The notes: generated by a model from the sequence alone, not told the origin. A stretch of DNA of 64,000 nucleotides from Candidatus Omnitrophota bacterium (GCA_903901225.1 CAIUQE010000035.1:9249-73248), one strand, 5' to 3'. Counted from the stretch's first letter, positions 33,890 through 59,046 are shown. Numbers and translations: made by a program.

Positions 33890-35224
33890 ATGGAAATCGC
33901 GATCATTGGTTCAGGTTATGTCGGGCTTGTCACGGGAGTTTGCCTTGCCCATATCGGGCACACGGTCACGTGCGTTGACAATAATCCTGAAAAGGTCCGC
34001 AAGCTCAAGGCGGGCGAGGTCCCGATCTACGAACCGGGCCTCGAGCCCCTTATGCACAAGTACAGCAAAATGAAACGCTTGAATTTCTCGTCGTCCATTG
34101 AGGCGGCGACGAAAAAAGCGACGGTCATTTTCATCGCGGTGGGGACCCCGTCAAAGAAGAACGGCGACGCTGACCTTACTTATATCGAGAATGTGGCGCG
34201 CGCGATCGCCAGGAACATGGATTCTTATAAGCTGCTCGTCGAGAAGTCAACGGTCCCCGTGCAGACGGGCAACCGCATCGAGCGCACCGTGGCGCTCAAT
34301 CTTCCGGCAAAATTCCGCCGCGGCAATAAATGCCTTGTGGAATTCGATGTCGCCTCCAATCCGGAGTTCCTGCGCGAAGGCTCGGCGGTGGAAGATTTCA
34401 TGAATCCCGACCGTATCGTCATTGGCGTCAAGTCACGGCGGGCCGAACAGCTGCTGCGCGAGGTTTACGCGCCATTGAAAGCCAGGCTGGTCGTGACGAA
34501 CGTGGCCACCGCGGAAATGATCAAGCACGCCTCCAATTCGTTCCTGGCGACAAAGATATCTTTTATTAATTCCGTCGCGCAGATCTGCGACAGGGTCGGC
34601 GCCGACGTCCTCAGTGTGGCCGAAGGCATGGGCTATGACCGGCGTATCGGTCGCGCGTTCCTCAATGCCGGTATCGGTTACGGCGGCAGCTGCTTTCCGA
34701 AGGATGTTGACGCCTTCGTGCGCCTCGCCGAGAAGAGCGGGTATGATTTCAAGCTTCTCAAGGGCGTGCGCGACGTTAATGAGCAGCAGAAAGCCTCGTT
34801 CATCCACCTGATCGAGGATAAATTGTGGATCATCAAGGACAAGACCATCGCGATATGGGGCCTGGCGTTCAAGGCTGACACGGATGACATGCGCCGCGCC
34901 GCGTCCATTGACATTATCCAGGCGCTTCAGGAGGAGGGTGCCCGCGTCCAGGCGTTCGACCCCAAGGCCATGGATAACGCGCGCCATGAATTGAAAGGCG
35001 TCAAATTCTGCGCGGACGCGTACGCGGCCGCGAAAGGCGCGGATTGCCTGCTTGTCCTTACTGAATGGGAAGAGTTCAAGCGCCTGGACCTCAAGCGCGT
35101 CCGGGGGTTGTTGCGCCAGGCGGTGGTGTTTGACGGGCGGAATTTCTTCGATGACAAGCTGTTCGTTGATCTGGGGTTTGAATATCACGGGATCGGCCGT
35201 GGCAGGGGGGCGCATGCCAGCTGA
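33890..35224 (+). CDS. ugd: UDP-glucose 6-dehydrogenase
   Basis: [14 protein letters not shown] Rossmann fold, GGSCFPKD catalytic Cys, and the UDPGDH C-terminal domain. Confidence 0.9.
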
Positions 35225-36158
35225 ACAGTCCGTTCTTATGTCCGGGGGCGCGGGTTTCCTCCCAAGCCATATGTGCGACATGCTCTTGGCGCGCGGCTAC
35301 AAGGTGATCTGCGCGGATAATTTTATCACCGGCAGGAAGGCCAACATTGCCCACCTCCTGAAGCACAAGAAGTTTACGCTCATCAGGCAGGATGTGACGG
35401 AACCTTTCAGGATCTGTGGCCGTATTAATTATGTGATGCACTGCGCGTCGCCCGCAAGCCCGGTCGATTACCTGAACCATCCTCTTGAGACGCTCATGGT
35501 CGGGGCGCAGGGCACCCAGAACATGCTGGATATCGCCAGGGCCAAGAAAGCCGTGTTCCTGCTGACATCGACATCCGAAGTTTACGGCGACCCGCTTGAA
35601 CATCCCCAGAAAGAAACGTATTGGGGCAATGTCAATCCCAACGGCCCCCGCAGTGTTTACGATGAGGCCAAGCGCTACGCCGAGGCGATCACCTTTGCCT
35701 ATCGCCGGACCTTCGGGGTGGATACGCGCGTTGTCCGTATTTTTAACACGTATGGCCCGCGCATGAACATCCACGACGGGCGCGTAGTCCCCAATTTCAT
35801 CGACCAGGCCCTCAAGGGCCTCCCGCTGACCGTGTACGGTGACGGGGAACAGACGCGCTCATTTTGTTACGTTTCCGACGAAGCCGATGGCATCCTGAAG
35901 CTGCTTTTCTCAAAGGAACCGGGGCCGGTGAATATCGGCAATCCCCGTGAATTCACGATGAAGGAATTCGCGGCGATCGTCCTGGAGTTGACCGGCAGTA
36001 AAAGCCGTATCATCCATAAACCTTTGCCCCAGGACGATCCACGCCAGCGCAAGCCCGATATCACCCTGGCGCGCCGCCGTCTCGGCTGGGAGCCGAAGGT
36101 GGCGCTCCGTGACGGGTTGAAAATGACGATCGACTGGTTTCGGGCCAATCCCGAGTAG
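35214..36158 (+). CDS. UDP-glucuronate decarboxylase (UXS/ArnA-decarboxylase-like SDR)
   Basis: GGAGFL, YDEAKR, and UXS hallmarks ([20 protein letters not shown]). An 11-nt overlap with ugd and a GGGGGG SD. Confidence 0.8.
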
Positions 36159-36164
36159 GGGCGC

Positions 36165-36776
36165 ATGCTGACACAAGAGGATCTCATTCAATTTGAGAAC
36201 GAGATCGCCGGGGCTTTTGCCAAGGGCCTGATCAAGGCGCCGGTCCACCTGCGCGCCGGCCGAGAGGCCGAGCTCATCCGTCTTTTCCAGAAATACAATA
36301 TCGGCCCTGATGACCATATCCTGGGGCATTGGGATTCACACGAATTATGCCTGCTCAAAGGCGTGCCGCCGGATGTGCTGAAACAGGCGATCCTCGACGG
36401 GCGCAGCATCGCGTTGTGTTTTCCCGAATACCGGATTTACTGTTCCGGCATTGTGGGCAGCCTCATGGGCGTGGCCACGGGCCTGGCGTGGGCGATCAAG
36501 GCCCGGGGGGAGCGCGGCAGGGTCTTTCTTTTTTGCGGGGATATGTCTTCCGAGACGGGCATTTTTCATGAGGCGGTAAAGTACGCGGTGAATTTTGACC
36601 TTCCGGCCGTTTTCGTTGTTTCCGATAACGGGCTGAGCGTCATGACCGATACCCGCGCGGCGTGGGGATCGCGGGAACCCTGGTTTCTGGGCACGCGCTT
36701 CGTCGCGAAGATCGAGTATTTCCGTTACAAGAACGGCTGGCCGCATTCCGGGTTGGGGAAGCTGGTGAAGTTCTGA
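36165..36776 (+). CDS. thiamine-diphosphate-dependent enzyme, alpha/N-terminal (PP-domain) subunit, truncated transketolase/E1-like
   Basis: TPP-binding GDMSSETG...NFDLPAVFVVSDNG motif. Only 203 aa. Confidence 0.6.
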   Translation: MLTQEDLIQFENEIAGAFAKGLIKAPVHLRAGREAELIRLFQKYNIGPDDHILGHWDSHELCLLKGVPPDVLKQAILDGRSIALCFPEYRIYCSGIVGSLMGVATGLAWAIKARGERGRVFLFCGDMSSETGIFHEAVKYAVNFDLPAVFVVSDNGLSVMTDTRAAWGSREPWFLGTRFVAKIEYFRYKNGWPHSGLGKLVKF

Positions 36777-36918
36777 CATTAGTAGCCAGGGTTTTTGACG
36801 TATCTTGATACGAGTTCAGAAACCAAGCTTTCCTTAATGCTTTTTTGAAAAAGCTGTTTCTGCTGTTTGAGTAGCAAGATATGTTAAAAACCCGATGGGG
36901 AATATCTAAAAGATAACA

Positions 36919-37458
36919 ATGGCTAAATATTTTGACGAGCTTAAACGTACCATGGAATGGCTGGCGCAGCACCCGCAGGTGGTATTTGTGGGGCAGACCG
37001 CGGCGGTCCCTGGCACGTTCATGTACCAGACGCTGCGGGATATCCCGCCGGGGAAGGCCCTGGAGTTCCCGGTGGCCGAGAGCTTCCAGATGCAGTTCAC
37101 CCTGGGGTTGGCGATCGGGGGGTACATCCCGGTCAGCATTTATCCGCGGCAGAATTTCCTGCTGCTGGCCGCCGGCGACATGGCGAACATGGTCGACAAG
37201 TTCAGTGACCTGACCTGCGGCCGGGTGAACCCGCGCCTTATCATCCGCGTGGCCACGGGGCCGGATAAGCCGGTCCATCCCGGGCACCAGCATGTGGGCA
37301 ACTATGCCGGCGCGTTGCGCGCGATGTTCTCCCGTATCGAGGTTGTTGAACTGGATGAGCCGCAGGATATTTTTCCCGCGTATGAAAAGGCGTTGACGCG
37401 GCCGGACGCGAAGCCCGTGATCCTTATCGAGCACGGAAATCATTACCAGGACAAGTGA
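36919..37458 (+). CDS. thiamine-diphosphate-dependent enzyme, beta/C-terminal (PYR-domain) subunit
   Basis: Pyrimidine-binding domain similar to the transketolase C-part / E1-beta. 179 aa. Partner of the upstream gene. Confidence 0.55.
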   Translation: MAKYFDELKRTMEWLAQHPQVVFVGQTAAVPGTFMYQTLRDIPPGKALEFPVAESFQMQFTLGLAIGGYIPVSIYPRQNFLLLAAGDMANMVDKFSDLTCGRVNPRLIIRVATGPDKPVHPGHQHVGNYAGALRAMFSRIEVVELDEPQDIFPAYEKALTRPDAKPVILIEHGNHYQDK

Positions 37459-37459
37459 C

Positions 37460-38407
37460 ATGCCAAAAAATACGATGAAGGTGCTGGTCACCGGCGGAGC
37501 CGGATATCTCGGATCCGTGCTTGTGCCATTGCTGCTTGAGAAAGGGCACGCGGTCACCGTACTGGACAATTTCATGTACGGCCAGACGCCGCTTTTGGAG
37601 TTGTGCCATCACGAACAACTGACGATCGTGCGGGGTGACGCGCGGGACAAGGCGACGGTCGAGCGGCTGATGCGCGATGCCGACGCCGTATTTCCCCTGG
37701 CGTGCCTGACGGGCGCGCCGTTGTGCGCGAAGGACCCCGCGGGGGCGCGCGCGGTCATCCTGGACGCGGTTGTGATGGCGCTGGCGCTGGCCTCAAAGGA
37801 GCAGCGGGTCATTTTTCCGACGACCAACAGCGGTTACGGCATCGGGGAACAGGGGAAATTCTGCACGGAGAGCACACCCCTGCGGCCCATATCCCTTTAC
37901 GGCAGGCTCAAGGTGGACGCGGAGAAAGCGGTGCTCGACAGCGGCCACGGCATCACCCTGCGCCTGGCCACGGCTTTCGGCGCGAGCCCGCGCATGCGCC
38001 TGGACCTTCTTGTGAACGATTTTACGTATCGCGCCGTTAATGACCGTTTCATTATCCTTTTTGAGGCGCATTTCAAGAGGAATTTCATCCACACGCGCGA
38101 CGTGGCCAGGGCGTTCCTTCACGCGCTCGACAATTTTGCCGCGATGCGCAATGAACCTTACAATGTCGGATTATCCGACGCGAACCTGAGCAAGCTTGAG
38201 CTGTGCCAGGAAATAAAAAAACAGGTGCCGGATTTTTATTTCGTCGAGGCGGCCGTGGGTGAAGACCCAGACAAGCGCGATTATATCGTTTCGAACGCGA
38301 AGATCGAACGCGCGGGGTTCAGGCCCGCGGTGTCCTTGTCCGACGGGATCAAAGAGCTTGTCAAGGCATACCAGGTCATCCGGCGCAACCAGTTCGCGAA
38401 TATCTGA
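37460..38407 (+). CDS. NAD-dependent epimerase/dehydratase-family SDR
   Basis: VLVTGGAGYLGS Rossmann fold and a YGRLK catalytic dyad. Confidence 0.75.
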   Translation: MPKNTMKVLVTGGAGYLGSVLVPLLLEKGHAVTVLDNFMYGQTPLLELCHHEQLTIVRGDARDKATVERLMRDADAVFPLACLTGAPLCAKDPAGARAVILDAVVMALALASKEQRVIFPTTNSGYGIGEQGKFCTESTPLRPISLYGRLKVDAEKAVLDSGHGITLRLATAFGASPRMRLDLLVNDFTYRAVNDRFIILFEAHFKRNFIHTRDVARAFLHALDNFAAMRNEPYNVGLSDANLSKLELCQEIKKQVPDFYFVEAAVGEDPDKRDYIVSNAKIERAGFRPAVSLSDGIKELVKAYQVIRRNQFANI

Positions 38408-39645
38408 TGCTGACGGCCTTCATCAAGCCTAACGCGAAGATGGACCAGTACGGCAAGGTTGCCGGCCTTTCCGCGATCGAGCTGCCGGTGTGGCTTATGC
38501 TGTTCGCCCAGAGCGTGCCCGGGAGTGTCGTCGTGGACATGGAGGCCGAAGGGCTTGATCACGCCGGGCTGGTCGCGCGCCTGGGTTCTCTCAAGGCGGG
38601 CCGCGCGGTGGTCCTGGCCACAGGCTCGCATCCTTCGGCGCATGTCCAGCAGGCCGAAGCCGCGCAGGCCGTCCGTCGGGTGGTGGGCGAGGCTTTGGGC
38701 ATCACGACGGAGATCCATGACCGCCTGCCCTTTGACCCTTTAAAGGCCGGGCAGCTGGACCTTGCGCGTGTTCCGATGGTAAAGTACCGCGCGCATAACT
38801 GGCATGGGTGGGGGCGCGATGACCTGGCGTATGGCGCGACGTTCGCGAGCATTTCATGCCCTTTCCATTGTGATTTTTGTTGCGTGAAGGATTTTTACGG
38901 GTCAGGTTACCGTCAGAGGGATCCCGGTGCTGTTGTTGAGGATGTGCGCGCGCTTGTTGAGAATGGCGTGACGAACATCAAGATGATGGACGAGCTTTTT
39001 GCCATCGACAATCCCGGTGTCCATGCTGTTTGTGACGGCTTGGCGGCCAGCGGGCTGGCGGACAGGCTTAATATCTGGGCTTACGCCCGCATTGACACCG
39101 TGACACCGGTCCTTTTAAAGAAAATGCGCGCCGCCGGCATCCGTTGGCTCGCGTACGGGATCGAGTCAGGGAACGAGGCGATACGCGCTGGCGCGGCCAA
39201 GGGGGCATTCACGAACGCGCGCGTCCGTGACGTCGTGGCCATGACCAAAGCAGCCGGCATCCATGTTGTCGGGAATTTCATGTTCGGCTTCTGGGAGGAT
39301 GACAGCGTCACCATGCGCCAGACGCTGGATCTCGCGAAAGAACTGGCCTGCGAATACGCGAATTTTTATTGCGTGACGGCGTACCCGGGCAGCCGGTTCT
39401 ACGATGAGATGAAAGCCCGCGGGGTCGATCTTCCCGCGGCGGGCGCGGAATACGCGCAGATGAGCCCGCGTTTCAAGCCGGTGCCTTCGGCAAAGCTTTC
39501 GGGGCGGGACATCCTGGCGTTCAGGGACGCGGCATTCATGGAATATTTCACCGACGCGCAATATCTGGCCATGATGGCGCGTTCATTCGGGGACGGCACC
39601 GTGGCCGGTATTCGCGCCATGACAAAGATCAAGATCAGAGGATAA
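38407..39645 (+). CDS. B12-binding radical SAM protein (class B, probable C-methyltransferase)
   Basis: N-terminal cobalamin-binding-like domain followed by a CPFHCDFC (CxxxCxxC) radical SAM core. Confidence 0.75.
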   Translation: MLTAFIKPNAKMDQYGKVAGLSAIELPVWLMLFAQSVPGSVVVDMEAEGLDHAGLVARLGSLKAGRAVVLATGSHPSAHVQQAEAAQAVRRVVGEALGITTEIHDRLPFDPLKAGQLDLARVPMVKYRAHNWHGWGRDDLAYGATFASISCPFHCDFCCVKDFYGSGYRQRDPGAVVEDVRALVENGVTNIKMMDELFAIDNPGVHAVCDGLAASGLADRLNIWAYARIDTVTPVLLKKMRAAGIRWLAYGIESGNEAIRAGAAKGAFTNARVRDVVAMTKAAGIHVVGNFMFGFWEDDSVTMRQTLDLAKELACEYANFYCVTAYPGSRFYDEMKARGVDLPAAGAEYAQMSPRFKPVPSAKLSGRDILAFRDAAFMEYFTDAQYLAMMARSFGDGTVAGIRAMTKIKIRG

Positions 39646-39661
39646 CAGGAGTGAACGTGTC

Positions 39662-40660
39662 ATGATCATCAGCCGCACGCCTTTTCGCATTTCTTTCTTT
39701 GGCGGTGGGACGGACTATCCCCAGTGGTTCAAGGACCATCCGGGGGCTGTCCTGTCCACCACCATCGACAAGTATTGTTATATTACCGCGCGTTACCTGC
39801 CGCCTTTCTTTGAGCATCGTTCGCGCATCATTTATTCCAAAATGGAACATGTCCATAATATCGACGAGATCGATCATCCCTCAGTGCGCGAGACGCTGAG
39901 GTTTCTGGATATTTCCCGCGGCCTTGAGATCCACCATGACGGCGACCTTCCCGCGCGCACGGGCCTTGGCTCCAGTTCGGCATTCACTGTCGGGCTTTTG
40001 AACGCGCTTTACGCCCTCAAGGGTGTGATGCCCACGAAGACCCGCCTCGCGGAAGAAGCCATCCATATTGAGCAGGACATGATCAAGGAGAGCGTGGGCT
40101 GCCAGGACCAGGTCGCGGCCGCTGAGGGCGGATTGAACCACATCGAGTTCGGAGGCCCCGGGCATCTGAACGTGAACAAGGTCACGATCTCGCGGGAGAA
40201 CCTTATCACCTTGCAGAACCATATGATGCTTTTCTTTACCGGGATATCCCGTATTTCGTCGGCGATCGCCGTGCACCAGGTCCAGAACATCCCGCGGCTC
40301 AGCCGTGAGCTGGGGACCATGCACGCGCATGTCGCTGAAGCGCTGGCACGCCTGAACGCGGCGGATTTTAAGGGGTTCGGCAAGCTCCTGCACGAAAGCT
40401 GGTTGTGCAAGCGCTCCCTTTCGGACAGGATCACGACTCCTCAGGTCGATGATGTGTACGCCAAAGCATTGCGGGCGGGCGCTCTGGGCGGCAAACTGCT
40501 GGGCGCGGGCGGGGGCGGGTTCGTGCTCATTTACGCGGAGCCCGACAGGAAGCCGGCGGTCCGCAAGGCGCTGGAAGGGTTGCTTGAGGTCCCGTTCAGG
40601 TTCGAGACGCTGGGCAGCCAGATCATTTTCTACCAACCTTATGACGGGGTCGTGGCATGA
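39662..40660 (+). CDS. GHMP-family sugar kinase (HddA-like heptose-7-phosphate kinase)
   Basis: RISFFGGGTDYP N-terminus and the GHMP motif PARTGLGSSSA. Confidence 0.7.
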   Translation: MIISRTPFRISFFGGGTDYPQWFKDHPGAVLSTTIDKYCYITARYLPPFFEHRSRIIYSKMEHVHNIDEIDHPSVRETLRFLDISRGLEIHHDGDLPARTGLGSSSAFTVGLLNALYALKGVMPTKTRLAEEAIHIEQDMIKESVGCQDQVAAAEGGLNHIEFGGPGHLNVNKVTISRENLITLQNHMMLFFTGISRISSAIAVHQVQNIPRLSRELGTMHAHVAEALARLNAADFKGFGKLLHESWLCKRSLSDRITTPQVDDVYAKALRAGALGGKLLGAGGGGFVLIYAEPDRKPAVRKALEGLLEVPFRFETLGSQIIFYQPYDGVVA

Positions 40661-41370
40661 GCGCTGATGTCGGGAAAACGGATTTCCTTATCCTTTGCGG
40701 CGGGCTCGGCACGCGGCTGCGCTCCGTTACGGGCGGTGTGCCCAAGGTCATGGCCGAGGTCCAGGGTGAGCCGTTCCTGGATTTTTTATTGCGTTATCTC
40801 ATCAAACAGGGTGCCACACGCGTGATCCTTTGCGCGGGTTACAAGGCGGAATCGATCGCGGCGCATTACAAGGCCAAATTCAGCCAGTTGGACCTCCAGT
40901 TGTCGGTGGAACGGGAACCTTTGGGCACGGGCGGCGCCCTGAAGAATGCCGCGCCCCTGTTGAAATATGATCATGTTTTCGGCCTTAACGGCGATTGTTT
41001 CACTCCCGTGGATTATGCCGCTTTTCTTGGCGCCCATCTGGATAAAAAGGCGCTGGCCACCCTGGTCGGTGTCCGTGTCGAGGGCAACAAGGATTTCGGC
41101 ACTATCGTGAGCAATGACAAAGGAGATATCCTCGCGTTCAAAGAAAAGTTTGAGACCCGGGACGTGCAGTATATCAGCGCGGGCATTTATTGTTTCAACC
41201 GGGGGCTGTTTGAACGCATGCCGCCGGGGAAATTTTCCATCGAGTATGACTTTTTCCCGGGGATGATCGCCAACCGGTTCTATTGCCACAAGGTTGAGGC
41301 GCCTTTCATTGACATAGGGACGCCGGAGCGTTTTGCCTGGGCCCAGGAAAATCTCATGGGGATGCTATGA
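40657..41370 (+). CDS. sugar-1-phosphate nucleotidyltransferase (HddC-like)
   Basis: ILCGGLGTRLRSVTGGVPKV nucleotidyltransferase signature. Overlaps the kinase stop. Confidence 0.75.
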   Translation: MSADVGKTDFLILCGGLGTRLRSVTGGVPKVMAEVQGEPFLDFLLRYLIKQGATRVILCAGYKAESIAAHYKAKFSQLDLQLSVEREPLGTGGALKNAAPLLKYDHVFGLNGDCFTPVDYAAFLGAHLDKKALATLVGVRVEGNKDFGTIVSNDKGDILAFKEKFETRDVQYISAGIYCFNRGLFERMPPGKFSIEYDFFPGMIANRFYCHKVEAPFIDIGTPERFAWAQENLMGML

Positions 41371-42533: not shown

Positions 42534-42546
42534 AGAATATCTCCGG

Positions 42547-44325: not shown

Positions 44326-44333
44326 CGGCCGCG

Positions 44334-46200: not shown

Positions 46201-46270
46201 AGGCTCCGGCATGAAAAGACTCGACGTGAGTTGTTCAAGGGACAAAGTCAAGGGTTCCGTGCAGGGAGCG

Positions 46271-47773: not shown

Positions 47774-47777
47774 TCTT

Positions 47778-48935: not shown

Positions 48936-48937
48936 GC

Positions 48938-49792: not shown

Positions 49793-49806
49793 GTGAAAGG
49801 GAACAG

Positions 49807-50550: not shown

Positions 50551-50562
50551 CAATGAGGAGCC

Positions 50563-51720
50563 TTGATGAGAATTGCCTTTGATGCGGTGAGCCTGACCCG
50601 GGAGCGTTCGGGCGTGGCGAATTATCTCACGCGCCTTGTGCGCCGGCTGGTTGAGATCGACCCGGACCTTCAGGTTGTCTTGCTGGCGCCTGACAAGATC
50701 TGTGTGGAGTACGACCTTTTTATCCGTCATCCGCGGATCAGGCGGGTGGTGGTGGACCTGCCGCGTGCCGGGCGGAAAAAGTGGGCGTCAACGCACCTGC
50801 CCCGCCTTCTGAAGGAGCATGGCATTGACCTTTTTCACCAGCCCGGCGGCATGGACGTGGCGCTCTTTCGTTCGCCCTGCCCGATGGTCCTTACCGTTCA
50901 CGATATGGCGCCCTGGGTGTTGAGTACTTTCAAGGATTGGCGCCGGGCGCTGCGTTATAAATTGCGCAGCCTTGTTTGGGCGCACCAGGCGGCCAGGATC
51001 CTCACGGGAGTCGAGGTGAGCCGCAAGGACATTGTCCGGTTATGCCGCGTCCCGGCGGACAAGGTCGCCGTCACGCCGTACGGGGCGGAGCCTGTGTATG
51101 AAGGCGAGATCAAGGCCGGTGAGGCGGATGACATCCTGCGCAAGTACCGTTTGCTCGGGAAAAGGTATGTCGTTAATTTTTCCGGATTGAATTATAAACG
51201 GCGTAACATTGACCTTGTGCTCGACGGCTTCGCGCGTTTCCACCGTGAGGTTCCCGATGACGTGACGCTTGTTTTTACCGGGCCTGTGGCCAACGCGCAA
51301 GGCGCGTACGACCGGGCCCAGCGCAAGATGGGCATCCTCGGCATCCGCGAGCGCGTGGCCACGACCGGGTTCATGAACGAGAAGGCTCTGCAGGTGGTCA
51401 TTGAGAATGCCGAGGCGGCGATCGTGACCTCCCTGCATGAGGGATTCCCCCAGTCGATGGTCGAGGCGTTCGCTTCCGGCACGGCGGTCATTGCCACGGA
51501 CCGGGGCGGCGTGCCCGAGGTGGCGGGCGAGGCCGCGATCATCATTGACCCATACGACCCCGCGGCCCTGGCCGACGCGCTCAAACGCTTGCTCGGCAAT
51601 TCCGTCGACCGTGAACTTTATGTTGAACGGGGTTACGGCTGCATCCGTGCCTTGACCTGGCAGCGGACCGCCCGTGAGACGCTCAATGCCTACCGTTCCG
51701 TCCTGAAGGTCAGCGCATGA
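50563..51720 (+). CDS. glycosyltransferase family 1/4 (GT-B)
   Basis: GT4 C-terminal domain (SLHEGFPQSMVEAFASG). Confidence 0.8.
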   Translation: MMRIAFDAVSLTRERSGVANYLTRLVRRLVEIDPDLQVVLLAPDKICVEYDLFIRHPRIRRVVVDLPRAGRKKWASTHLPRLLKEHGIDLFHQPGGMDVALFRSPCPMVLTVHDMAPWVLSTFKDWRRALRYKLRSLVWAHQAARILTGVEVSRKDIVRLCRVPADKVAVTPYGAEPVYEGEIKAGEADDILRKYRLLGKRYVVNFSGLNYKRRNIDLVLDGFARFHREVPDDVTLVFTGPVANAQGAYDRAQRKMGILGIRERVATTGFMNEKALQVVIENAEAAIVTSLHEGFPQSMVEAFASGTAVIATDRGGVPEVAGEAAIIIDPYDPAALADALKRLLGNSVDRELYVERGYGCIRALTWQRTARETLNAYRSVLKVSA

Positions 51721-52592
51721 AGATCGCCCTCGTCTATGACCGCGACAGCCGCGTGGGGGTCGGGGAAAGATGCCGGCGCGTGCTGGAGCATCAGCCCGGG
51801 CTTCAGGTCTCTCAGTTCGACCTGAAAGAGATACGGCAGGTCACGGGGGGGTTTGACCTTTATCTGCGCCTGGACGACGGGGATTACGCGGCGCCGTTCC
51901 CTGCCGGCCTGCATCCTTACGCGTGGTGGGTGGCCGATACGCATTTGAAACATCCCTTGCGCTGCATCATCCGCAATGCCCCCGACTGTGACGCGCTTTT
52001 TTGTTTCCAGAAAGAAGGCGCCTGGGAGGTTTCCCGTGCCACAGGGAGGCTGGCGCGCTGGCTTCCGCCGGCGTGTGATCCAGTAAATCCGTCGTCTGCT
52101 TTTGTTCCTCATTCTCAGCGGCGCTGGGATATCGCTTTTGTCGGGACGACGGGAAAATATACCCTGCGCAAGGTGGTGCTGGAACTCATTAAAAGCGGCT
52201 ATCCCAACGCCTTCATCGGGACAGCCCATCACAGCGAACTTTTTTCGATCTATTCCCAGGCCAGGATCGTCGTCAACTACGCGATCAACAATGACCTCAA
52301 CATGCGCATTTTTGAAGCCATGGCGGCCGGGGCTTTGGTCCTCAACAACAGGATCAAGGACAACGGTTTTGAAGATATCTTTTCACCCGGCCAAGACTGT
52401 GTTGTCTTTGACGACCCGACGACCGGGGAGCTGAAGCGGCTGATCGACCATTATCTGTCCCATCGCGAAGACGGGGAACGGATCGCCCGGGCCGGGTTCA
52501 CCCTGGCAGAGCGGCACACGTACCGGGAAAGGCTCCGGGAGATAGGGCGGATCGTTCTCAACAGGGGGGCGCGTGAAGCTGATTTCTTTTAA
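51717..52592 (+). CDS. CgeB-family glycosyltransferase-like protein
   Basis: C-terminal NMRIFEAMAAGALVL motif typical of the CgeB/DUF3880 family. Confidence 0.5.
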   Translation: MKIALVYDRDSRVGVGERCRRVLEHQPGLQVSQFDLKEIRQVTGGFDLYLRLDDGDYAAPFPAGLHPYAWWVADTHLKHPLRCIIRNAPDCDALFCFQKEGAWEVSRATGRLARWLPPACDPVNPSSAFVPHSQRRWDIAFVGTTGKYTLRKVVLELIKSGYPNAFIGTAHHSELFSIYSQARIVVNYAINNDLNMRIFEAMAAGALVLNNRIKDNGFEDIFSPGQDCVVFDDPTTGELKRLIDHYLSHREDGERIARAGFTLAERHTYRERLREIGRIVLNRGAREADFF

Positions 52593-53631: not shown

Positions 53632-53644
53632 AGGAGAGGCCGGA

Positions 53645-54301
53645 ATGAGCGAAGATTTCAGGATGTGGAAAAAGAAGAACCTGCCGGGATTAAGGGCGCT
53701 GGTCAGGTCGGTCCGTTATATTTTCAAAAGGCCCCGCTGGTTTTTTCAGCGGGAGATCATGAAGAACAGCATTTTTATTTCCGAGTTTGAGATCGCCGAG
53801 GCGTCGCTTTTTCCGCGCCGGGTCATTGACCGGGTCATTGATATGTTCCGTCCGTCGTCCGTCCTGGACCTGGGATGCGGGGTGGGCCGGGCGCTGGAAT
53901 ATTTTCATGATCGCGGGATAGATGTCCAGGGCGTGGAGGGGTCTGAACTGGCCATATCCAAAGCGAAGTATCCCGACAAGATCCTTCAGTATAATCTTGA
54001 GAAAGAACTCAACCTCAAGAAGCGGTTTGACCTCATCTGGTCATTTGAATTTGTCGAGCACATCCATCCCAAATATGTAGATAACCTGCTAAAAACTTTT
54101 TCAAACCATTCCGATAAGGTTGTTGTTTCCGCCGCGCCTCCGGGGCAGGGGGGCGACGGTCATTTTAATGAACAGCTTCCGGTTTACTGGATAGAAAAGT
54201 TCAAACAATACGGTTATGCATTCGACCAGCCAAGGTCTGAAGAGCTGCGCAAGCTGGAAGACAGTTACAGCCAAAACCTTATTGTTTTCGAAAGAAAATG
54301 A
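53645..54301 (+). CDS. class I SAM-dependent methyltransferase
   Basis: Perfect AAGGAGAGG SD and motif I VLDLGCGVGRA. Confidence 0.65.
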   Translation: MSEDFRMWKKKNLPGLRALVRSVRYIFKRPRWFFQREIMKNSIFISEFEIAEASLFPRRVIDRVIDMFRPSSVLDLGCGVGRALEYFHDRGIDVQGVEGSELAISKAKYPDKILQYNLEKELNLKKRFDLIWSFEFVEHIHPKYVDNLLKTFSNHSDKVVVSAAPPGQGGDGHFNEQLPVYWIEKFKQYGYAFDQPRSEELRKLEDSYSQNLIVFERK

Positions 54302-54494
54302 TCTCTGTGGGAATTAGAGGCGGGAGAGGATCGTCGGGTATGAAAATTTCCACGCATTGTGTGGCCATTGGAATGGGATCAAAGTTCAACTTCATGTCGC
54401 CTGTATGGTTTTATCGTTCAAAATACGAGCGCTGGGCCATCCTGCGCGTGTGCGGCATTTATTTCTGGTTCGTCGTCAAGGAGTTCAAAATATT

Positions 54495-55553
54495 TTGAAA
54501 AAAGTCCTGATCGTCAACCCTTTCGGCATCGGGGACGTGCTGTTCACGACGCCTTTGATCGCGGCCCTCAAGCGCCGGGAGCCCGGCATATCCATCAGTT
54601 TCGTCGGGAACGCCCGCACCGCGCCCTTCCTCAGGAATGACCCCCGCCTTGACCGGGTTTTTTCCTATGAACGTGATGAATTCGTCGCGGTCTATAAAAG
54701 ATCGCCGTGGCAGTTCCTCCTGAAATGGAAAGCGTTCACGGCAGAACTGTATGCCGGGCATTTTGATACCGCGTTCGACCTTTCCATGGGGTCCCCCGTC
54801 GGAGCGGCGCTGATGCTGGCCGGGATCCCGGCGCGCGTCGGATATGACTACAAGGGCCGCGGGCGGTGGTTGACCCGCAAGGTCCCGCTCAAAGGCTATG
54901 AAGGCCGGCACGTGGCCGCGCATTATCTGGACCTTCTTGAGCCCCATCCCGGTAACGAAGACCGCATGGCCTTGTTCGTTCCCGAAGCTGACAAGGCCTG
55001 GGCCGGAGAGTTCATGGCACGTCACGGGTTGGGGGATAACGCCTTCATCGTCATGTTCCCGGGTGGCGGGGCAAGCTGGGGGCAGGGGGCCGGCATGAAA
55101 CGCTGGCCGCCGGAAGGCTACGCGCGATTGGCAGAGAAAATAATTGAAAGATCAAAGTGCCCCATTATACTGATGGGGGACCAAAGCGAGCTGGAGCTTT
55201 GCCGTCATGTCGCCGGGTCAGCTTCAAGTCCGCTGGTAGCGGTGGCGGATCCGACGAGCCTGACGCGGGCCGCGGCGCTGATGCGCCGGGCAAGGTGCGC
55301 TGTTGTCAACGATGGCGGCCCGTTGCACGTGGGGGTGGCCTGCGGCGCGCGGACAGTTTCGATCTTTGGCCCTGTCGACCCCGTGGTTTACGGGCCTTAC
55401 CCGCCGGGGAAAGATCACCGGGTGGTGACCAAAGGGCTGCCCTGCCAGCCGTGTTACAGGAATTTTCGCGTGTCAGGGTGCGATCATCAGAGTTGTTTGA
55501 GAACATTAACCATGGATGAGGTCTACAGGGCCTTGGAGGAGTTCGTCTCATGA
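54495..55553 (+). CDS. glycosyltransferase family 9 (heptosyltransferase-like), second copy; TTG start inferred
   Basis: N-terminal KKVLIVNPFGIGDVLFTTP and C-terminal NDGGPLHVGVACGARTVSIFG GT9 motifs. Confidence 0.65.
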   Translation: MKKVLIVNPFGIGDVLFTTPLIAALKRREPGISISFVGNARTAPFLRNDPRLDRVFSYERDEFVAVYKRSPWQFLLKWKAFTAELYAGHFDTAFDLSMGSPVGAALMLAGIPARVGYDYKGRGRWLTRKVPLKGYEGRHVAAHYLDLLEPHPGNEDRMALFVPEADKAWAGEFMARHGLGDNAFIVMFPGGGASWGQGAGMKRWPPEGYARLAEKIIERSKCPIILMGDQSELELCRHVAGSASSPLVAVADPTSLTRAAALMRRARCAVVNDGGPLHVGVACGARTVSIFGPVDPVVYGPYPPGKDHRVVTKGLPCQPCYRNFRVSGCDHQSCLRTLTMDEVYRALEEFVS

Positions 55554-56647
55554 GCGTGCCGTTCATTGATTTTACCGAACAGAATAAAATGATCCGCAAG
55601 GCGGTCGACGCGGGGCTTGAACAGGTGATCGCGAAAGCGTCATTCATCATGGGGCCGGAAGTGAAGAAATTCGAGGATGAGTTCGCGGCTTTTTGCGGCG
55701 TGAAATACGCGGTGGGCGTGAATTCCGGGACGGACGCGCTGTACCTTGCTTTGGCGGCCATGGGTGTCGGGGAAGGTGACGAGGTGATCCTGCCGACGTT
55801 CACGTTCATCGCCACGGCCCTGTGCGCGTCTTATACGGGCGCCCGGGTCAAGTTCGTGGACATCGATGAGCATTCCTACAATATGGACCCCGCGAAGCTG
55901 GAGCAGGTGATCACGCCGCGGACCAAGGTCATCATTCCCGTGCACCTTTACGGGCAGATGGCGAACATGGACGAGATCCTGGCGGTCGCCCGCCGGCGCG
56001 GCGTGGCGGTGCTCGAGGACGCCTGCCAGGCGCACGGCACGCGTTACAAGGGCCAGCGCAGCGGGTCCATGGGCAACGGCGGTTGTTTCAGCTTTTATCC
56101 GACCAAGGGCCTGGGCGCCTGGGGCGACGGCGGCATGGTCGTGACCAATGACGCGAAACTGGCCGAGATGGTGCGGATGCTCAGGGATTACGGGCGCACG
56201 GACCGTTATGCCCACAAGTTCAAGGGGCACAACTCGCGGCTGGACACGGTGCAGGCCGTTGTGCTTTCGGAGAAGTTGAAACACCTGGACGCGTGGAACA
56301 GCTTGCGCCAGACGGTGGCCGGATATTACGCCAGGCACCTTGCCGGATCGGGGATCATTGTGCCGCAGACACTGCCTGACCGGGAGCATGTCCATCAGAC
56401 CTATGCCGTCCGCCTGAAGGACCGCGCCCGCGTGCTGGACCGGCTGAAGGAGAAAGGCGTCACCGCGCTGATCCATTACCCCATACCGATCCATCTGCAG
56501 GAAGCATACGCCGACGCCGGATTCAAGGCGGGGGATTTTCCTGTTTCCGAGAAAGTCGCTGACGAGATCCTGTCGCTGCCCATGTTCCCGCACATGACGG
56601 AGGCCCAGGTCATTGAGGTTGCTGCCGCGCTCAAGGGAGCCCTGTAA
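55550..56647 (+). CDS. DegT/DnrJ/EryC1-family aminotransferase (canonical Lys)
   Basis: PLP lysine in FYPTKGLGAWGDGG and full DegT fold. Confidence 0.85.
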   Translation: MSVPFIDFTEQNKMIRKAVDAGLEQVIAKASFIMGPEVKKFEDEFAAFCGVKYAVGVNSGTDALYLALAAMGVGEGDEVILPTFTFIATALCASYTGARVKFVDIDEHSYNMDPAKLEQVITPRTKVIIPVHLYGQMANMDEILAVARRRGVAVLEDACQAHGTRYKGQRSGSMGNGGCFSFYPTKGLGAWGDGGMVVTNDAKLAEMVRMLRDYGRTDRYAHKFKGHNSRLDTVQAVVLSEKLKHLDAWNSLRQTVAGYYARHLAGSGIIVPQTLPDREHVHQTYAVRLKDRARVLDRLKEKGVTALIHYPIPIHLQEAYADAGFKAGDFPVSEKVADEILSLPMFPHMTEAQVIEVAAALKGAL

Positions 56648-57420
56648 TGTTCCCAGTACCGGTGGCGGTCGTCATCATCGCGAAGAATGAAGAAGACAAT
56701 ATGGAGGCCTGCATCCACAGCGTCAAGGGGTGGGCCGCCGAGATCATCGTGGTCAATGACAATTCCACGGACCGCACGGTGGCCATTGCCGAGGCCTGCG
56801 GCGCCGTTGTCCATCATCGCACGATGGACAATGAGGGCATCCACCGCAACTGGGCCGCGGCCCGGGCGACGAGCGCGTGGGTCCTCTATCTTGACGCGGA
56901 CGAACGCGTGACGCCGGAGCTTCGCCGGGAGATCGATGCGGTGCTGCCCGGCACAGCGCACGTGGCCTTTGCCATACCGTTCAAGACCTATATCGGCAAT
57001 TACTGGGTGGACCATTCCGGATGGTACCCGGGGTCGAAGACCAGGCTGGTCCTGAAAAGCAAATTCCGTTATGAGGAGGCACCAGTCCATCCGCGCGTGT
57101 TCCACGAGGGGACCTGCGGGCATTTGACCGGGGATATCGTGCATTACGGTTATCCTGACCTGGCGCATTTTCTCGCCAGCCTTAATCGCCAGACGACGCT
57201 GGAAGCGCAGAAGTGGGTCGATACCGGACGGCGCATGTCCATGCTCGCGGGATTTTGGCGCATGGTCGACCGGTTCTTCCGTTCCTATATCGGCAAGGGC
57301 GGCTGGAAGGGCGGGTTCATGGGTTTTGTGATCGCTTATTTCGCCTCGCTGTACCAGGTCATGAGCTACATCAAATATTACGAGATCATCAAAGGCATCA
57401 AAGAGCCCGTGAAAAAATGA
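56647..57420 (+). CDS. glycosyltransferase family 2
   Basis: VAVVIIAKNEE...IIVVNDNSTD GT-A motifs. Confidence 0.75.
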   Translation: MFPVPVAVVIIAKNEEDNMEACIHSVKGWAAEIIVVNDNSTDRTVAIAEACGAVVHHRTMDNEGIHRNWAAARATSAWVLYLDADERVTPELRREIDAVLPGTAHVAFAIPFKTYIGNYWVDHSGWYPGSKTRLVLKSKFRYEEAPVHPRVFHEGTCGHLTGDIVHYGYPDLAHFLASLNRQTTLEAQKWVDTGRRMSMLAGFWRMVDRFFRSYIGKGGWKGGFMGFVIAYFASLYQVMSYIKYYEIIKGIKEPVKK

Positions 57421-58016
57421 AAGTTGTTTTTGTTGATAGAGATGGCGTGATCAATGAATTTCCCGGCAACGGCCTTTATGTCACCAACGTCAAGGATTTT
57501 CATTTCATCCCGCGTTCCATGGAAGCGCTGAAATTGTTGACCGACGCCGGGTACCATATTTTCGTGATATCGAACCAGGCGGGTGTCGGCAAAGGGGTAT
57601 TCACCCACGACAAGCTCCGGCGCATCACGCAGCGCCTGCACGATGGCGCGGCCCGGGCCGGAGCGCGTATCACCGGGGTCCATTACTGCACCTGCAAGTC
57701 GACGGACGGGTGCAATTGCCGCAAGCCGCGCGTCGGCAATATCCTCAAGGCGCTTGCCTCCGTCGGGGGGAGTGACGCGGACGCGCGCGACGCGTATTTT
57801 GTGGGGGATACCGAGATCGACATCAAGGCCGGGAAGAATGCCGGATGCAAGACGGTCTTTGTCCTGTGCGGGCGTGAAGACCGGGCGTACATGAAGCGCT
57901 GGGATATCAGGCCCGACCATATAGCAAAGGACCTTTATGAAGCCGCAAAACTCATCATCGCCCGGGATACTGATCATCCACGCGACCGCGGGCGCCGGGC
58001 ATCGCAAGGCCGCTGA
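57417..58016 (+). CDS. gmhB: D-glycero-D-manno-heptose 1,7-bisphosphate phosphatase-like HAD-IIIA phosphatase
   Basis: VFVDRDGVIN motif I, ISNQ, and the Zn motif H..C.C.DGCNCRKP. The 3' end overlaps the next gene by ~80 nt. Confidence 0.65.
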   Translation: MKVVFVDRDGVINEFPGNGLYVTNVKDFHFIPRSMEALKLLTDAGYHIFVISNQAGVGKGVFTHDKLRRITQRLHDGAARAGARITGVHYCTCKSTDGCNCRKPRVGNILKALASVGGSDADARDAYFVGDTEIDIKAGKNAGCKTVFVLCGREDRAYMKRWDIRPDHIAKDLYEAAKLIIARDTDHPRDRGRRASQGR

Positions 58017-59046
58017 AGCCATCCATCACGGGCTGGAGGACCGTTATCCGGGAGCGTCGACGGTCGTTGACGCGCTGGACCTTACCACGCCGTTCTTTCG
58101 CCATGCCTATACCCAGGGTTACGAATTCATGGTCGGGAAGATCCCGGTGTTCTGGGGAATGTTCTTTTGGCTCACCGACCAGGCCTGGTTCCTGCCGGTC
58201 TTCCGCGCCATCCGTCGCGTCTATAACGGGCTTAACGCCACGCGCCTCGTGGCTTTCCTGAAGAAAGAAAAGTTCGACTGCGTCGTGGCGACGCATTTCT
58301 TTGCCGCGGAGGTGTGCGGCCATCTGCGCCGCACGGGGCAGCTCGGCGGAAAGCTGGTCGTTGTTGTGACGGATTTCGACGTGCATAAAATATGGCTTGT
58401 CCCGGGCGTCGATGAATACTGCGTGGCGAGCGAGTACACCAAAAGGCGCCTGGTGTCGCTTGGAGTGGATGAGAGTAAAATATTCATTACCGGCATCCCG
58501 CTGGATGAGAAATTCACCCGGCCGCGCGACAAGGCCGGGATGCGCCGCAAGCTCGGCCTTGACTCGGAGGCGTTCACGGTCCTTATCTCAACAAGTTCAT
58601 TCGGTTTCGGGCCTATCGAGGAATTGGCCGGATACCTGGCCACGTTGCAGCTCATTATCATTTGCGGGAACAACAAGGAACTCCAGGCGCGGATCGCGGC
58701 GCGGTCCAATCCGCGGCACAAGCCTTTCGGGTTCGTCAATAACATGGAAGAGATGATGGCTGCCGCCGACGTCATGGTCACGAAGCCCGGCGGCCTTTCG
58801 GTCACGGAAGCGCTGGCCAATAACCTTCCCCTTGTTTTCTTCAGCGCGATCCCGGGTCAGGAAGCCGGGAATATCCATGTCCTGGCGATCAATGGCATCG
58901 GCCTGAGCGGCATGCCGTTGCGCGACCTTTGTTCCGAGGTCCTCGGCCTGGCCGCGTCCCCGGCGGCCCTGGCGCAGGCGCGGGAGAGGACCCGCATCCT
59001 GGCCAGGCCTGATTCCGTCCGGGATATCATTGCCCGTCTGGTATGA
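57937..59046 (+). CDS. GT28-family glycosyltransferase (MGDG-synthase/UgtP/MurG-like)
   Basis: N-terminal ILIIHATAGAGHRKAAEAI and a C-terminal GT28 domain. Confidence 0.7.
   Translation: MKPQNSSSPGILIIHATAGAGHRKAAEAIHHGLEDRYPGASTVVDALDLTTPFFRHAYTQGYEFMVGKIPVFWGMFFWLTDQAWFLPVFRAIRRVYNGLNATRLVAFLKKEKFDCVVATHFFAAEVCGHLRRTGQLGGKLVVVVTDFDVHKIWLVPGVDEYCVASEYTKRRLVSLGVDESKIFITGIPLDEKFTRPRDKAGMRRKLGLDSEAFTVLISTSSFGFGPIEELAGYLATLQLIIICGNNKELQARIAARSNPRHKPFGFVNNMEEMMAAADVMVTKPGGLSVTEALANNLPLVFFSAIPGQEAGNIHVLAINGIGLSGMPLRDLCSEVLGLAASPAALAQARERTRILARPDSVRDIIARLV

Follow-up and report, generated by a model that had tools for sequence, protein, structure and literature searches.

What kind of sugar is made where genes for nucleotide-heptose synthesis lie next to genes for thiamine diphosphate (ThDP) and radical S-adenosylmethionine (SAM) enzymes? 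The question is raised by a 64,000-nucleotide (nt) stretch of Candidatus Omnitrophota bacterium DNA (GCA_903901225.1, CAIUQE010000035.1:9249-73248), hereafter the window. Positions 33890-59046 are a real ~25-kb cell-surface glycan cluster, and the glycan is probably of lipopolysaccharide (LPS) type. The left third of the locus is an uncharacterised seven-gene cassette that is also present in many other bacteria, some archaea and phages, and that most likely turns an activated seven-carbon sugar into a deoxy, carbon-branched sugar. The enzyme families are known, while their combination and product have not been described before; a literature search found no paper describing the cassette.

A preliminary description, made from the sequence of the window, had presented the region as one unusual locus. 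The single locus resolves into a widespread conserved cassette plus a hypervariable block.

The cassette and its hosts

Genes were taken from a listing of open reading frames (ORFs) and from the gene calls of an identical public contig (ENA ERZ1426592, 78 kb), and were annotated by Pfam and NCBIfam scans and PDB sequence searches. The cassette reads as follows.

36165-36776, + strand: minimal E1-alpha-like ThDP subunit (pyrophosphate-binding, PP, domain), 203 amino acids (aa); PF00676 over residues 9-169
36777-36918, no strand: 143-nt AT-rich spacer with a long hairpin, between the two ThDP subunit genes
36919-37458, + strand: minimal E1-beta-like ThDP subunit (pyrimidine-binding, Pyr, domain only), 179 aa; PF02779, 1UM9
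37460-38407, + strand: Cj1427-like NDP-heptose C4 dehydrogenase (short-chain dehydrogenase/reductase, SDR); 6VO6/6VO8
38407-39645, + strand: radical SAM enzyme of the B12-binding radical SAM family, N-terminal domain truncated; PF04055
39662-40660, + strand: HddA-like GHMP sugar kinase; GHMP_kinases_N and GHMP_kinases_C
40657-41370, + strand: HddC/ManC-like sugar-1-phosphate (probably guanylyl) transferase; PF00483
41367-42533, + strand: His-variant DegT, similar to sugar 3-dehydratases of the ColD type that depend on pyridoxamine phosphate (PMP); PF01041, 361 bits

One genome per species was scanned with an alignment of the radical SAM enzyme, giving 80 loci whose ORFs were compared by tblastn and all-against-all clustering. 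In total, 83 loci with the cassette were fetched. Hosts include Azospirillum, Magnetospirillum, Stellaceae, Gemmataceae, Elusimicrobia, Bryobacterales, Margulisiibacteriota, Dehalococcoidia, Nitrospirae, Methanoperedenaceae and DPANN archaea, as well as Herbaspirillum lusitanum, Solidesulfovibrio magneticus and Planctomycetes. Among the 46 loci with at least 18 kb of sequence, a ThDP pair of the transketolase superfamily is present in 44, the GHMP kinase in 42, the His-DegT in 37, the Cj1427-like SDR in 33, the NTP-transferase in 31 and an Fcl-like reductase in 20. The preliminary description had assigned the radical SAM, ThDP and methyltransferase genes to sugar modification, and the association of the radical SAM enzyme and the ThDP pair with NDP-heptose genes across the 83 loci bears this out.

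The cassette is complete in cultured hosts. Herbaspirillum lusitanum carries GmhA, kinase, GmhB, transferase, both SDRs, DegT, E1-like alpha and beta subunits of the minimal type (mini-E1) and a B12-type radical SAM enzyme beside rml genes; no structure of its polysaccharide was found in the literature. A plasmid search returned five records, three from Azospirillum and two from Solidesulfovibrio. Plasmid pDMC1 of S. magneticus RS-1 (L167, locus 10191-25503) holds the full cassette; its cluster also encodes a GT-C (PMT/ArnT-like) transferase, and the last gene is lhgO, for L-2-hydroxyglutarate oxidase. GmhA lies within the cassette in seven related loci and in H. lusitanum, and GmhA and GmhB both lie inside it in metagenome-assembled genomes (MAGs) labelled Methanoperedenaceae, Woesearchaeota, Pelotomaculum and Margulisiibacteriota. 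We infer that a housekeeping LPS-heptose pathway is not expected in such archaeal, Pelotomaculum and Margulisiibacteriota lineages. The inclusion of GmhA and GmhB, the H. lusitanum gene set and the lhgO gene of pDMC1 tie the cassette to an NDP-heptose, probably GDP-heptose.

Viral contigs carry the cassette, too. In IMG/VR, 324 stretches encode relatives of the radical SAM enzyme. Among 80 fetched loci (L085-L164), the mini-E1 is found in 57, the Cj1427-like SDR in 35 and a His-DegT-like gene in 32. In one of them (L163, 1400-16340), the cassette directly adjoins tail sheath, tape-measure and virion genes, indicating that at least some of these contigs are genuine tailed phages. GenBank phages yielded no radical SAM relative even at E 1e-5, and the SDR search there gave distant WcaG-like matches only; the viral occurrences are thus confined to IMG/VR contigs. 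Two phage-like contigs (L002 and L003) carry a short radical SAM enzyme and a mini-E1 alongside NeuB, a CMP-sugar synthetase-like gene, methyltransferases and further radical SAM enzymes, those of L003 being B12-binding. As hallmark genes, one of the two has Thy1, GIY-YIG, HNH and NUMOD3, and the other, of 420 kb, has an intein-containing ribonucleotide reductase and dCMP deaminase.

Probable nucleotide-heptose supply and keto-sugar enzymes

Heptose kinases (3K85, 4USK, 4N3O) account for the four top PDB matches of the kinase, which scores 129 bits against the HddA model NF049969 (cut-off 600). The NTP-transferase scores 158 bits against ManC and 147 bits against HddC (HddC cut-off 300), both under the cut-offs.

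The SDR matches 6VO6/6VO8 over its full length (388 bits, E 3e-115), with the next-best match at 84 bits. We take PDB 6VO6 to be Cj1427. Cj1427 oxidises GDP-heptose at C4 with 2-oxoglutarate, which recycles the bound NADH and is itself converted to L-2-hydroxyglutarate; together with the Campylobacter jejuni C3-dehydratase it yields GDP-3-deoxy-4-keto-heptose in vitro (PMC10680097). The lhgO gene of S. magneticus fits this chemistry because L-2-hydroxyglutarate is the by-product of Cj1427.

In the His-DegT, the motif FSLYAAH aligns with FSFFGNK of perosamine synthase, placing a His at the position of the Schiff-base Lys. The same replacement is seen in 61 of the 69 aligned DegT proteins of cassette loci, where the proteobacterial copies read SHHI. 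Such a dehydratase regenerates PMP from glutamate, releasing 2-oxoglutarate, which the dehydrogenase uses as co-substrate. In the PDB, the His-DegT is closest to GDP-perosamine synthases (240 bits), followed by ColD (~176 bits) and E1. The similarity to GDP-perosamine synthases suggests that the His-DegT is a GDP-sugar enzyme converted to a dehydratase.

A minimal ThDP enzyme

The best PDB match of the alpha subunit is pyruvate dehydrogenase E1-alpha, and its PF00676 match spans profile positions 8-175 of 300. The ThDP/Mg motif is read as GDM-X26-DN (GD-X28-N type). Alpha subunits are 75-80% identical within Omnitrophota and 45-51% identical in phage-type contigs. The beta subunit best matches the 2-oxo acid dehydrogenase E1-beta 1UM9, scores 25.3 bits against PF02779, just under the cut-off of 27, and carries the catalytic-Glu motif PVAE; the Pfam scan finds no Transketolase_C domain (PF02780) in it. 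The pair thus falls short of the architecture of a full-length E1, in which alpha has ~330 aa and beta includes Transketolase_C.

In E1 structures, the parts absent from the mini-E1 serve E2 binding and regulation. Because these parts are missing and no E2 or E3 genes lie in the cluster, it is a reasonable reading that the pair would work as a stand-alone decarboxylase/carboligase. Its co-location with keto-sugar-generating enzymes suggests that it may add a C2 unit to a keto sugar. Across loci, the slot is filled by three interchangeable ThDP forms, namely full-length E1 alpha/beta, the truncated form (200 + 178 aa) and, in 16-17 loci, a bona fide split transketolase. E1-type and split transketolase enzymes branch deoxy-keto sugars in antibiotic pathways, and such enzymes have so far been described from gene clusters of actinomycetes (PMC12247030).

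The spacer between the two subunit genes (36777-36918) has a fold energy of -48 kcal/mol (z = -5.4), with 19-nt inverted-repeat arms at 36789-36807 and 36875-36893. It is single-copy in the window and absent from relatives, in which the ThDP genes abut. Its features suggest either an inserted inverted-repeat element of small size or a hairpin with a regulatory role.

The cassette radical SAM enzyme

The enzyme had been described as a B12 radical SAM. The radical SAM half of the name holds: PF04055 is matched, and the cysteines of the CX3CX2C motif (C151, C155 and C158) are invariant or nearly so. The B12 half is unsupported: Pfam detects PF02310 neither in the window protein nor in relatives of 412-417 aa, and the window protein and relatives of 411-431 aa have a deletion of ~70 residues, including the second Rossmann half, compared with long orthologues (~495 aa) that carry PF02310. 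The family is large: a betaproteobacterial member used as query matches at least 7,992 proteins at E <= 1e-60, the best 120 of them with 75-85% identity, and PF02310 is present in most of the family. Among NCBIfam models, HpnJ scores highest, with 90 bits (cut-off 578). The AlphaFold2 (AF2) model (pLDDT 93.9) has AprD4 as its best fold match (TMq 0.68, E 7e-20, 18% identity). AprD4 contains no cobalamin; it dehydrates a 1,2-diol of an aminoglycoside sugar by radical chemistry. Next in the fold search are the methylases MgmA/QCMT and TsrM; the identities of MgmA and TsrM are confirmed (PMC12931638). With PF02310 absent, ~70 residues lost, AprD4 as the fold match and HpnJ far below its cut-off, we cannot call B12-dependence for the window copy. 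Candidate reactions are dehydration and C-C bond formation, with methylation less likely for the truncated copy.

Could the enzyme nevertheless be a class-B cobalamin-dependent C-methyltransferase (GenK/Fom3 type), so that the product would be a C-methylated deoxy-heptose? The long orthologues with PF02310 are very strongly conserved, methylases are the second-best PDB matches, and an Azospirillum argentinense locus encodes, in addition, a methyltransferase and a 'cobalamin-dependent protein'. In the window copy and its clade, on the other hand, the residues of the Rossmann half and the PF02310 match are lost, and were cobalamin methyl transfer conserved, loss of a half-domain in an otherwise orthologous cassette would be unexpected. 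Together with the cobalamin-free best fold match, this makes C-methylation unlikely. The preliminary description had predicted a heavily C-/O-methylated, possibly branched deoxy-heptose/pentose glycan; a branched deoxy-heptose agrees with our best model, and the C-methylation is unsupported, the sole candidate C-methylase having no recognisable cobalamin domain.

Architecture of the locus

Genes run without a break on the + strand from 30.8 to 61.6 kb, the majority abutting or overlapping, as described earlier. The locus has three parts: a conserved left module, a lower-GC hypervariable block and a conserved right flank. The left module comprises the cassette and the following genes.

30820-31746, + strand: ROK-family kinase/regulator, conserved left flank; PF00480 on the identical contig ERZ1426592; same position in Omnitrophota loci L001, L005, L006 and L013
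31733-33874, + strand: LptD-like outer-membrane LPS-assembly protein; PF04453 26.9 bits (cut-off 22.4), PF03968 25.4 bits (20.4)
33890-35224, + strand: Ugd, UDP-glucose 6-dehydrogenase; three UDPG_MGDP_dh domains, TIGR03026 476 bits (cut-off 190)
35214-36158, + strand: UXS, UDP-glucuronate decarboxylase; human UXS1 2B69/4GLL, 349 bits, E 2e-103, full length
42601-44325, + strand: MsbA-like ABC exporter (lipid-linked glycan flippase); ABC_membrane and ABC_tran

The order of this module is syntenic in Omnitrophota MAGs: ROK, LptD, Ugd, (Ugd2), UXS, E1-alpha, E1-beta, (Fcl-like SDR), Cj1427-like SDR, radical SAM, kinase, NTP-transferase, His-DegT and MsbA. Ugd2 and the Fcl-like gene are absent from the window. 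LptD is syntenic in 8-9 Omnitrophota loci, and MsbA is 67-88% identical in Omnitrophota. The nearest radical SAM relatives (59-71% identity) are nearly all in Candidatus Omnitrophota MAGs, with one labelled Planctomycetales.

The genes to the right of MsbA are as follows (GT, glycosyltransferase).

44334-45293, + strand: GT9 glycosyltransferase (heptosyltransferase family); PF01075 103.6 bits, TIGR02195 97 bits, sub-cut-off
45346-46200, + strand: class-I SAM methyltransferase 1; Methyltransf_23/11/25
46211-47050, + strand: GT2 glycosyltransferase; PF00535 80.7 bits
47060-47773, + strand: class-I SAM methyltransferase 2; Methyltransf_11/25, DUF268-like region
47778-48935, + strand: GT4 glycosyltransferase; Glycos_transf_1 and Glyco_transf_4
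48938-49792, + strand: SPASM/twitch radical SAM enzyme 1 (SPASM1); Radical_SAM 68 bits, SPASM 47 bits, BtrN 9e-10
49768-50550, + strand: Methyltransf_24 methyltransferase, weak CmcI/rhamnosyl O-methyltransferase similarity; PF13578 95.6 bits, PF04989 25.8 bits
50563-51720, + strand: GT4 glycosyltransferase; Glycos_transf_1 and Glyco_transf_4
51717-52592, + strand: Glyco_trans_1_2 (CgeB-like) glycosyltransferase; PF13524 83 bits
52573-53631, + strand: SPASM/twitch radical SAM enzyme 2 (SPASM2), BtrN-like sugar dehydrogenase candidate; Radical_SAM and SPASM
53645-54301, + strand: class-I SAM methyltransferase 4; Methyltransf_23/11 from ORF residue 137 (ORF opens at 53411, start 53645 inferred)
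54357-55553, + strand: GT9 glycosyltransferase, conserved right flank; PF01075 93 bits, position kept in another Omnitrophota contig
55550-56647, + strand: canonical (Lys) DegT sugar aminotransferase; PF01041 409 bits, Lys at the Schiff-base position; conserved in L030 and another Omnitrophota contig
56647-57420, + strand: GT2 glycosyltransferase, conserved right flank; PF00535 73.7 bits, synteny in another Omnitrophota contig
57417-58016, + strand: GmhB-like HAD-IIIA phosphatase; NF006506 141 bits (cut-off 178), TIGR01656 and TIGR01662 over cut-offs (ORF opens at 57213, ATG 57417 inferred)
57937-59046, + strand: MGDG_synth/GT28-type glycolipid glycosyltransferase; PF06925 95 bits, PF04101 40 bits; 180 bits against a diglucosyl-diacylglycerol synthase model, under its cut-off

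Nearly every item of the earlier gene inventory was recovered in Pfam, NCBIfam and PDB searches. Domain or PDB matches support Ugd and UXS, the ThDP alpha/beta pair, the SDR, the GHMP kinase, the nucleotidyltransferase and the GmhB-like phosphatase. Pfam supports the two SPASM enzymes, the four SAM methyltransferases and the glycosyltransferases (two each of GT9, GT2 and GT4, the CgeB-like Glyco_trans_1_2 enzyme and the MGDG_synth GT28), and alignment at the Schiff-base position supports the His-variant and canonical Lys DegTs. The MsbA-like exporter and the upstream LptD are likewise confirmed, the LptD match being weak yet over the Pfam cut-offs. An Rfam scan of the window, covering TPP, SAM and cobalamin riboswitches and other RNA families, gave no match at gathering score.

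GC content falls from ~0.58-0.60 to 0.50-0.53 after MsbA. In a relative whose radical SAM enzyme is 88% identical (ERZ1426844 contig), GT9 and methyltransferase 1 are kept and the genes beyond differ. The right-flank order GT9, Lys-DegT, GT2, GmhB, GT28 and PriA is conserved in Omnitrophota relatives. The GC dip, the gene replacement and the conserved right end indicate two conserved flanks around a hypervariable block. Conserved flanks with a hypervariable core are the usual anatomy of surface-antigen loci.

In the ERZ1426844 relative, the block is replaced by an NTP-transferase, a 446-aa DegT of E1-dehydrase size and a 587-aa YerE-like ThDP enzyme. The replacement resembles a second branched-sugar pathway, of yersiniose type, within this lineage.

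The PriA-like gene (59043-60704) encodes only 553 aa, with the 3'-DNA-binding and C-terminal domains and no helicase-domain match at E <= 1e-3 in Pfam; the NCBIfam PriA models align piecewise and far below their cut-offs. The version of a relative has 565 aa, indicating that the short form is conserved. Two long ORFs, 2947-6819 (1290 aa) and 17165-21202 (1345 aa), lie in the window's lowest-GC stretches (0.43-0.48); the first has a C-terminal HATPase_c domain only and the second has TPR repeats only.

SPASM enzymes of the variable block

SPASM1 and SPASM2 are paralogues (27% identity over the full length). SPASM2 has PF04055 and PF13186, with invariant cysteines C256, C274, C275, C323 and C326. 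It matches BtrN in sequence (E 1e-20, 22% identity), and its AF2 model (pLDDT 92.8) has BtrN as best fold (E 2e-16, TMt 0.73-0.80), nine orders of magnitude ahead of the next match. SPASM2 is therefore a candidate BtrN-like sugar dehydrogenase. It belongs to a small family of 64 proteins. In another Omnitrophota locus, homologues occupy the same slot and are flanked by glycosyltransferases, and in Ciceribacter GMD, Fcl and a capsule synthase are the neighbours.

The radical SAM and methyltransferase genes might instead be an inserted pathway for cofactor maturation or for a ribosomally synthesised and post-translationally modified peptide (RiPP). The SPASM enzymes do show weak NCBIfam similarity to a tungsten-cofactor maturase and to spiro-SPASM proteins, in all cases far under the cut-offs. 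Next to the radical SAM genes, however, are no peptidase or RiPP recognition genes and no room for a precursor peptide, the genes abutting or overlapping and the neighbours being glycosyltransferases or methyltransferases. The glycan-cluster setting of the SPASM2 homologues, the sequence and fold match to BtrN and the fixed association of the cassette radical SAM enzyme with NDP-heptose genes all point the same way. Such an insertion, which would have overturned the sugar-modification role proposed at the outset, is hardly credible and is rejected.

Destination of the glycan

The region is most likely the main envelope-glycan locus of this bacterium, and the glycan an LPS- or lipooligosaccharide-type glycolipid. 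LptD-like and MsbA-like genes and two GT9 genes are present, and LptD and MsbA are syntenic across Omnitrophota; all are under their equivalog cut-offs (the MsbA-like exporter scores 492 bits against TIGR02203, cut-off 602). A literature search on Omnitrophota LPS returned nothing relevant.

A gene downstream (61663-62820, 385 aa) had been assigned to the O-antigen ligase family. Pfam and NCBIfam scans give no match for it even at E 0.01, and its hydrophobic segments, one N-terminal and three or four later, are too few. It is also set apart from the cluster, lying beyond PriA and Fmt, and the assignment is dropped.

The glycan could also be something other than LPS, namely a capsule, a diacylglycerol-anchored glycolipid or a protein-linked glycan. 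A conserved transferase similar to MGDG_synth and diglucosyl-diacylglycerol synthase closes the locus, and the cluster has neither lipid A genes nor WaaL or Wzy; downstream of the cassette, S. magneticus encodes a GT-C (PMT/ArnT-like) enzyme whose annotation is protein O-glycosylation, and archaeal and Gram-positive-type hosts have the cassette as well. Synteny of the LptD-like and MsbA-like genes with the cassette throughout Omnitrophota, and the two GT9 genes in the cluster, argue for LPS instead. We regard a non-LPS destination as doubtful, though worth keeping in mind.

A model for the locus

We favour, with moderate confidence, a three-layer LPS-type locus whose cassette would produce a modified NDP-heptose. 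Gene content, enzyme families, synteny and the conservation of the cassette are observed directly; the substrates, the sequence of reactions and the product are inferred. Ugd and UXS would make UDP-glucuronic acid and UDP-xylose. D-glycero-D-manno-heptose 7-phosphate would come from a GmhA encoded elsewhere, receive a C1 phosphate from the HddA-like kinase to form the 1,7-bisphosphate, lose the C7 phosphate to GmhB, and be activated by the HddC-like transferase to an NDP-heptose, probably a GDP sugar. The Cj1427-like SDR would oxidise C4 to give a 4-keto sugar, with NADH recycled by 2-oxoglutarate, and the His-DegT (PMP/ColD type) would remove the C3 hydroxyl to give an NDP-3-deoxy-4-keto-heptose. 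The mini-E1 would then add a pyruvate-derived acetyl (C2) unit to the carbonyl, most likely at C4, as YerE or the aKADH2 enzymes act on deoxy-keto sugars, giving a 4-C-acetyl sugar. The AprD4/HpnJ-like radical SAM enzyme may carry out a final radical step, either dehydration or C-C bond formation.

The GT9, GT2 and GT4 enzymes would place this sugar on a lipid-linked glycan. The four methyltransferases would methylate the glycan, and the variable block would assemble and decorate a strain-specific outer part. The BtrN-like radical dehydrogenases plausibly feed keto sugars to the canonical DegT aminotransferase, an oxidise-then-aminate pairing proposed by analogy with BtrN/BtrS. Assembly of the glycolipid would take place on the inner side of the membrane, and the MsbA-like exporter would then flip it.

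Several observations weigh against this model. None of the cluster's enzymes reaches an NCBIfam equivalog cut-off, so every specific enzyme name is a '-like' name. The radical SAM enzyme, ThDP pair and kinase co-occur at 91-96%, as opposed to 72-80% for the SDR and His-DegT; this looser association suggests that the ThDP and radical steps might not depend on a 3-deoxy-4-keto intermediate. Some Azospirillum plasmid loci hold only part of the set. The Fcl-like reductase is found in 32 of the 83 loci, including most Omnitrophota relatives, yet is absent from the window, which leaves the final redox state of the product uncertain. GmhA was not found within the 64-kb window by tblastn with a cassette GmhA query, and may be encoded elsewhere in the genome. 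The intact B12 domain of the long orthologues argues for cobalamin chemistry in most family members. Among the annotated ORFs between 31.7 and 62.8 kb, no WaaL, Wzx/Wzy, ABC-2 export or lipid A genes were identified, and the LPS destination therefore rests on the adjacency of LptD and MsbA and on the GT9 genes. To our knowledge, the glycan structure is known for no cassette host.

The co-occurrence figures bear on another possibility, in which the ThDP pair, instead of branching an NDP-keto-sugar, builds or supplies the backbone at the sugar-phosphate level, before the kinase and transferase activate the unusual backbone. The pair could be a transketolase making sedoheptulose 7-phosphate, or a DXS-like enzyme ligating pyruvate to an aldose phosphate to give a deoxy-ketose. 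No three components co-occur more tightly than the ThDP pair, radical SAM enzyme and kinase, some loci have a bona fide split transketolase in place of E1, and A. lipoferum p6 and A. argentinense p5 keep the radical SAM enzyme and kinase while the SDR and His-DegT are absent. However, the three ThDP forms belong to the same two superfamily types for which branching of keto sugars has been proposed or shown (PMC12247030), a keto-sugar acceptor is made in most loci by the SDR and His-DegT encoded there, and the GmhA in several cassettes shows use of the ordinary sedoheptulose route. We consider backbone synthesis by the ThDP pair improbable.

How far might the preferred pathway, with C2 addition to a keto-heptose, extend? 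Caryose, a carbocyclic LPS sugar of Burkholderia caryophylli, is a 4,8-cyclo-3,9-dideoxy-nonose whose origin is stated to be unknown, and radical SAM relatives of HpnJ and Cds are generally accepted to build cyclopentane rings out of sugars (PMC9092360). The five-enzyme core (heptose supply, C4 dehydrogenase, C3 dehydratase, E1-type ThDP enzyme and radical SAM enzyme) corresponds at every step to a retro-biosynthesis of caryose. C1-C7 would derive from the heptose, the 3-deoxy position from the dehydratase, the C4 tertiary alcohol and C8-C9 methyl carbinol from ThDP-dependent acetyl addition to the 4-ketone, and the C7-C8 bond from attack of a radical SAM-made C7 radical on the acetyl carbonyl; the window version, having no Fcl-like reductase, would be redox-complete. 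Among the best 120 of at least 7,992 radical SAM relatives of a betaproteobacterial query, none is from Burkholderia/Trinickia caryophylli. It is a speculative and rather unlikely suggestion that the cassette is a widespread pathway, in bacteria, archaea and phages, to nonoses that are carbocyclic like caryose or at least 3-deoxy with a C4-acetyl branch.

Comparison with known systems

The closest parallel for the heptose steps is the capsular GDP-heptose pathways of C. jejuni, which share HddA-, HddC- and GmhB-like genes, a Cj1427-like SDR and a His-variant PMP dehydratase. The Fcl-like reductase of cassette relatives is comparable to the Cj1428-type reductases there, as the His-DegT is to the HS:5 C3-dehydratase. 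In contrast, the C. jejuni pathways have no ThDP or radical SAM enzyme, their natural 3-deoxy products are 3,6-dideoxy sugars made via a 4,6-dehydratase, and they serve a capsule, whereas the cassette occurs in Omnitrophota and many phyla with LPS as the probable destination here.

Yersiniose, erwiniose and caryophyllose synthesis (E1 3-dehydrase, YerE, YerF) follows the same logic, with a His-PMP enzyme giving a 3-deoxy-4-keto NDP-sugar before ThDP-dependent acyl addition to C4 (PMC9306805). Those pathways use CDP-hexoses and a single-chain ThDP enzyme of the acetolactate-synthase type (DC family), whereas this locus has a GDP-heptose-type substrate, a heteromer of the transketolase superfamily and an added radical SAM enzyme. 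The YerE-like gene in the variable block of the 88% relative indicates that the two systems are distinct and can coexist.

The aKADH2 and split transketolase enzymes of aldgamycin, kibdelomycin (KbDH-alpha/beta), avilamycin and paulomycin, with the transketolases of miharamycin and amipurimycin, are likewise heteromeric ThDP enzymes beside deoxy-keto-sugar genes. They add a C2 branch from pyruvate, are full length and belong to secondary metabolism, and the review covers split transketolases only from Streptomycetes (PMC12247030). In the window pair, by comparison, alpha has 203 aa, beta has 179 aa and no C-terminal domain, and the predicted role is in a cell-envelope glycan.

Among radical SAM enzymes, AprD4, which acts on a sugar ring and has a cobalamin-free Rossmann-like N-domain, resembles the cassette enzyme in fold, and the carbocycle-forming HpnJ/Cds type does so through the NCBIfam match. 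Both resemblances are distant (18% identity to AprD4; 90 bits to HpnJ, cut-off 578). Unlike AprD4, the cassette enzyme has no AprD3-like partner identified here, and its substrate is presumably nucleotide-linked. The resemblance of SPASM2 to BtrN in sequence and fold, with a canonical DegT three genes downstream (55550-56647), fits the oxidise-then-aminate order of BtrN/BtrS in butirosin synthesis; SPASM2 differs in an extra 60-residue N-terminal helical extension and in a surface-glycan, not aminoglycoside, context.

Significance

We know of no work on the envelope chemistry of Omnitrophota, an almost entirely uncultured phylum; the locus predicts an unusual conserved sugar in this envelope. 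With thousands of homologues, tractable cultured hosts (H. lusitanum, Azospirillum spp. and S. magneticus RS-1) and tailed phages, the prediction is directly testable and of broad reach. If it is true, ThDP-dependent sugar branching of the E1/transketolase type would extend beyond actinomycete antibiotics to surface glycans in many phyla, an E1 reduced to a total of 382 aa would serve as a stand-alone carboligase, and the B12-binding radical SAM family would gain a member that modifies nucleotide-heptoses. The cassette may also open the unsolved biosynthesis of carbocyclic LPS sugars.

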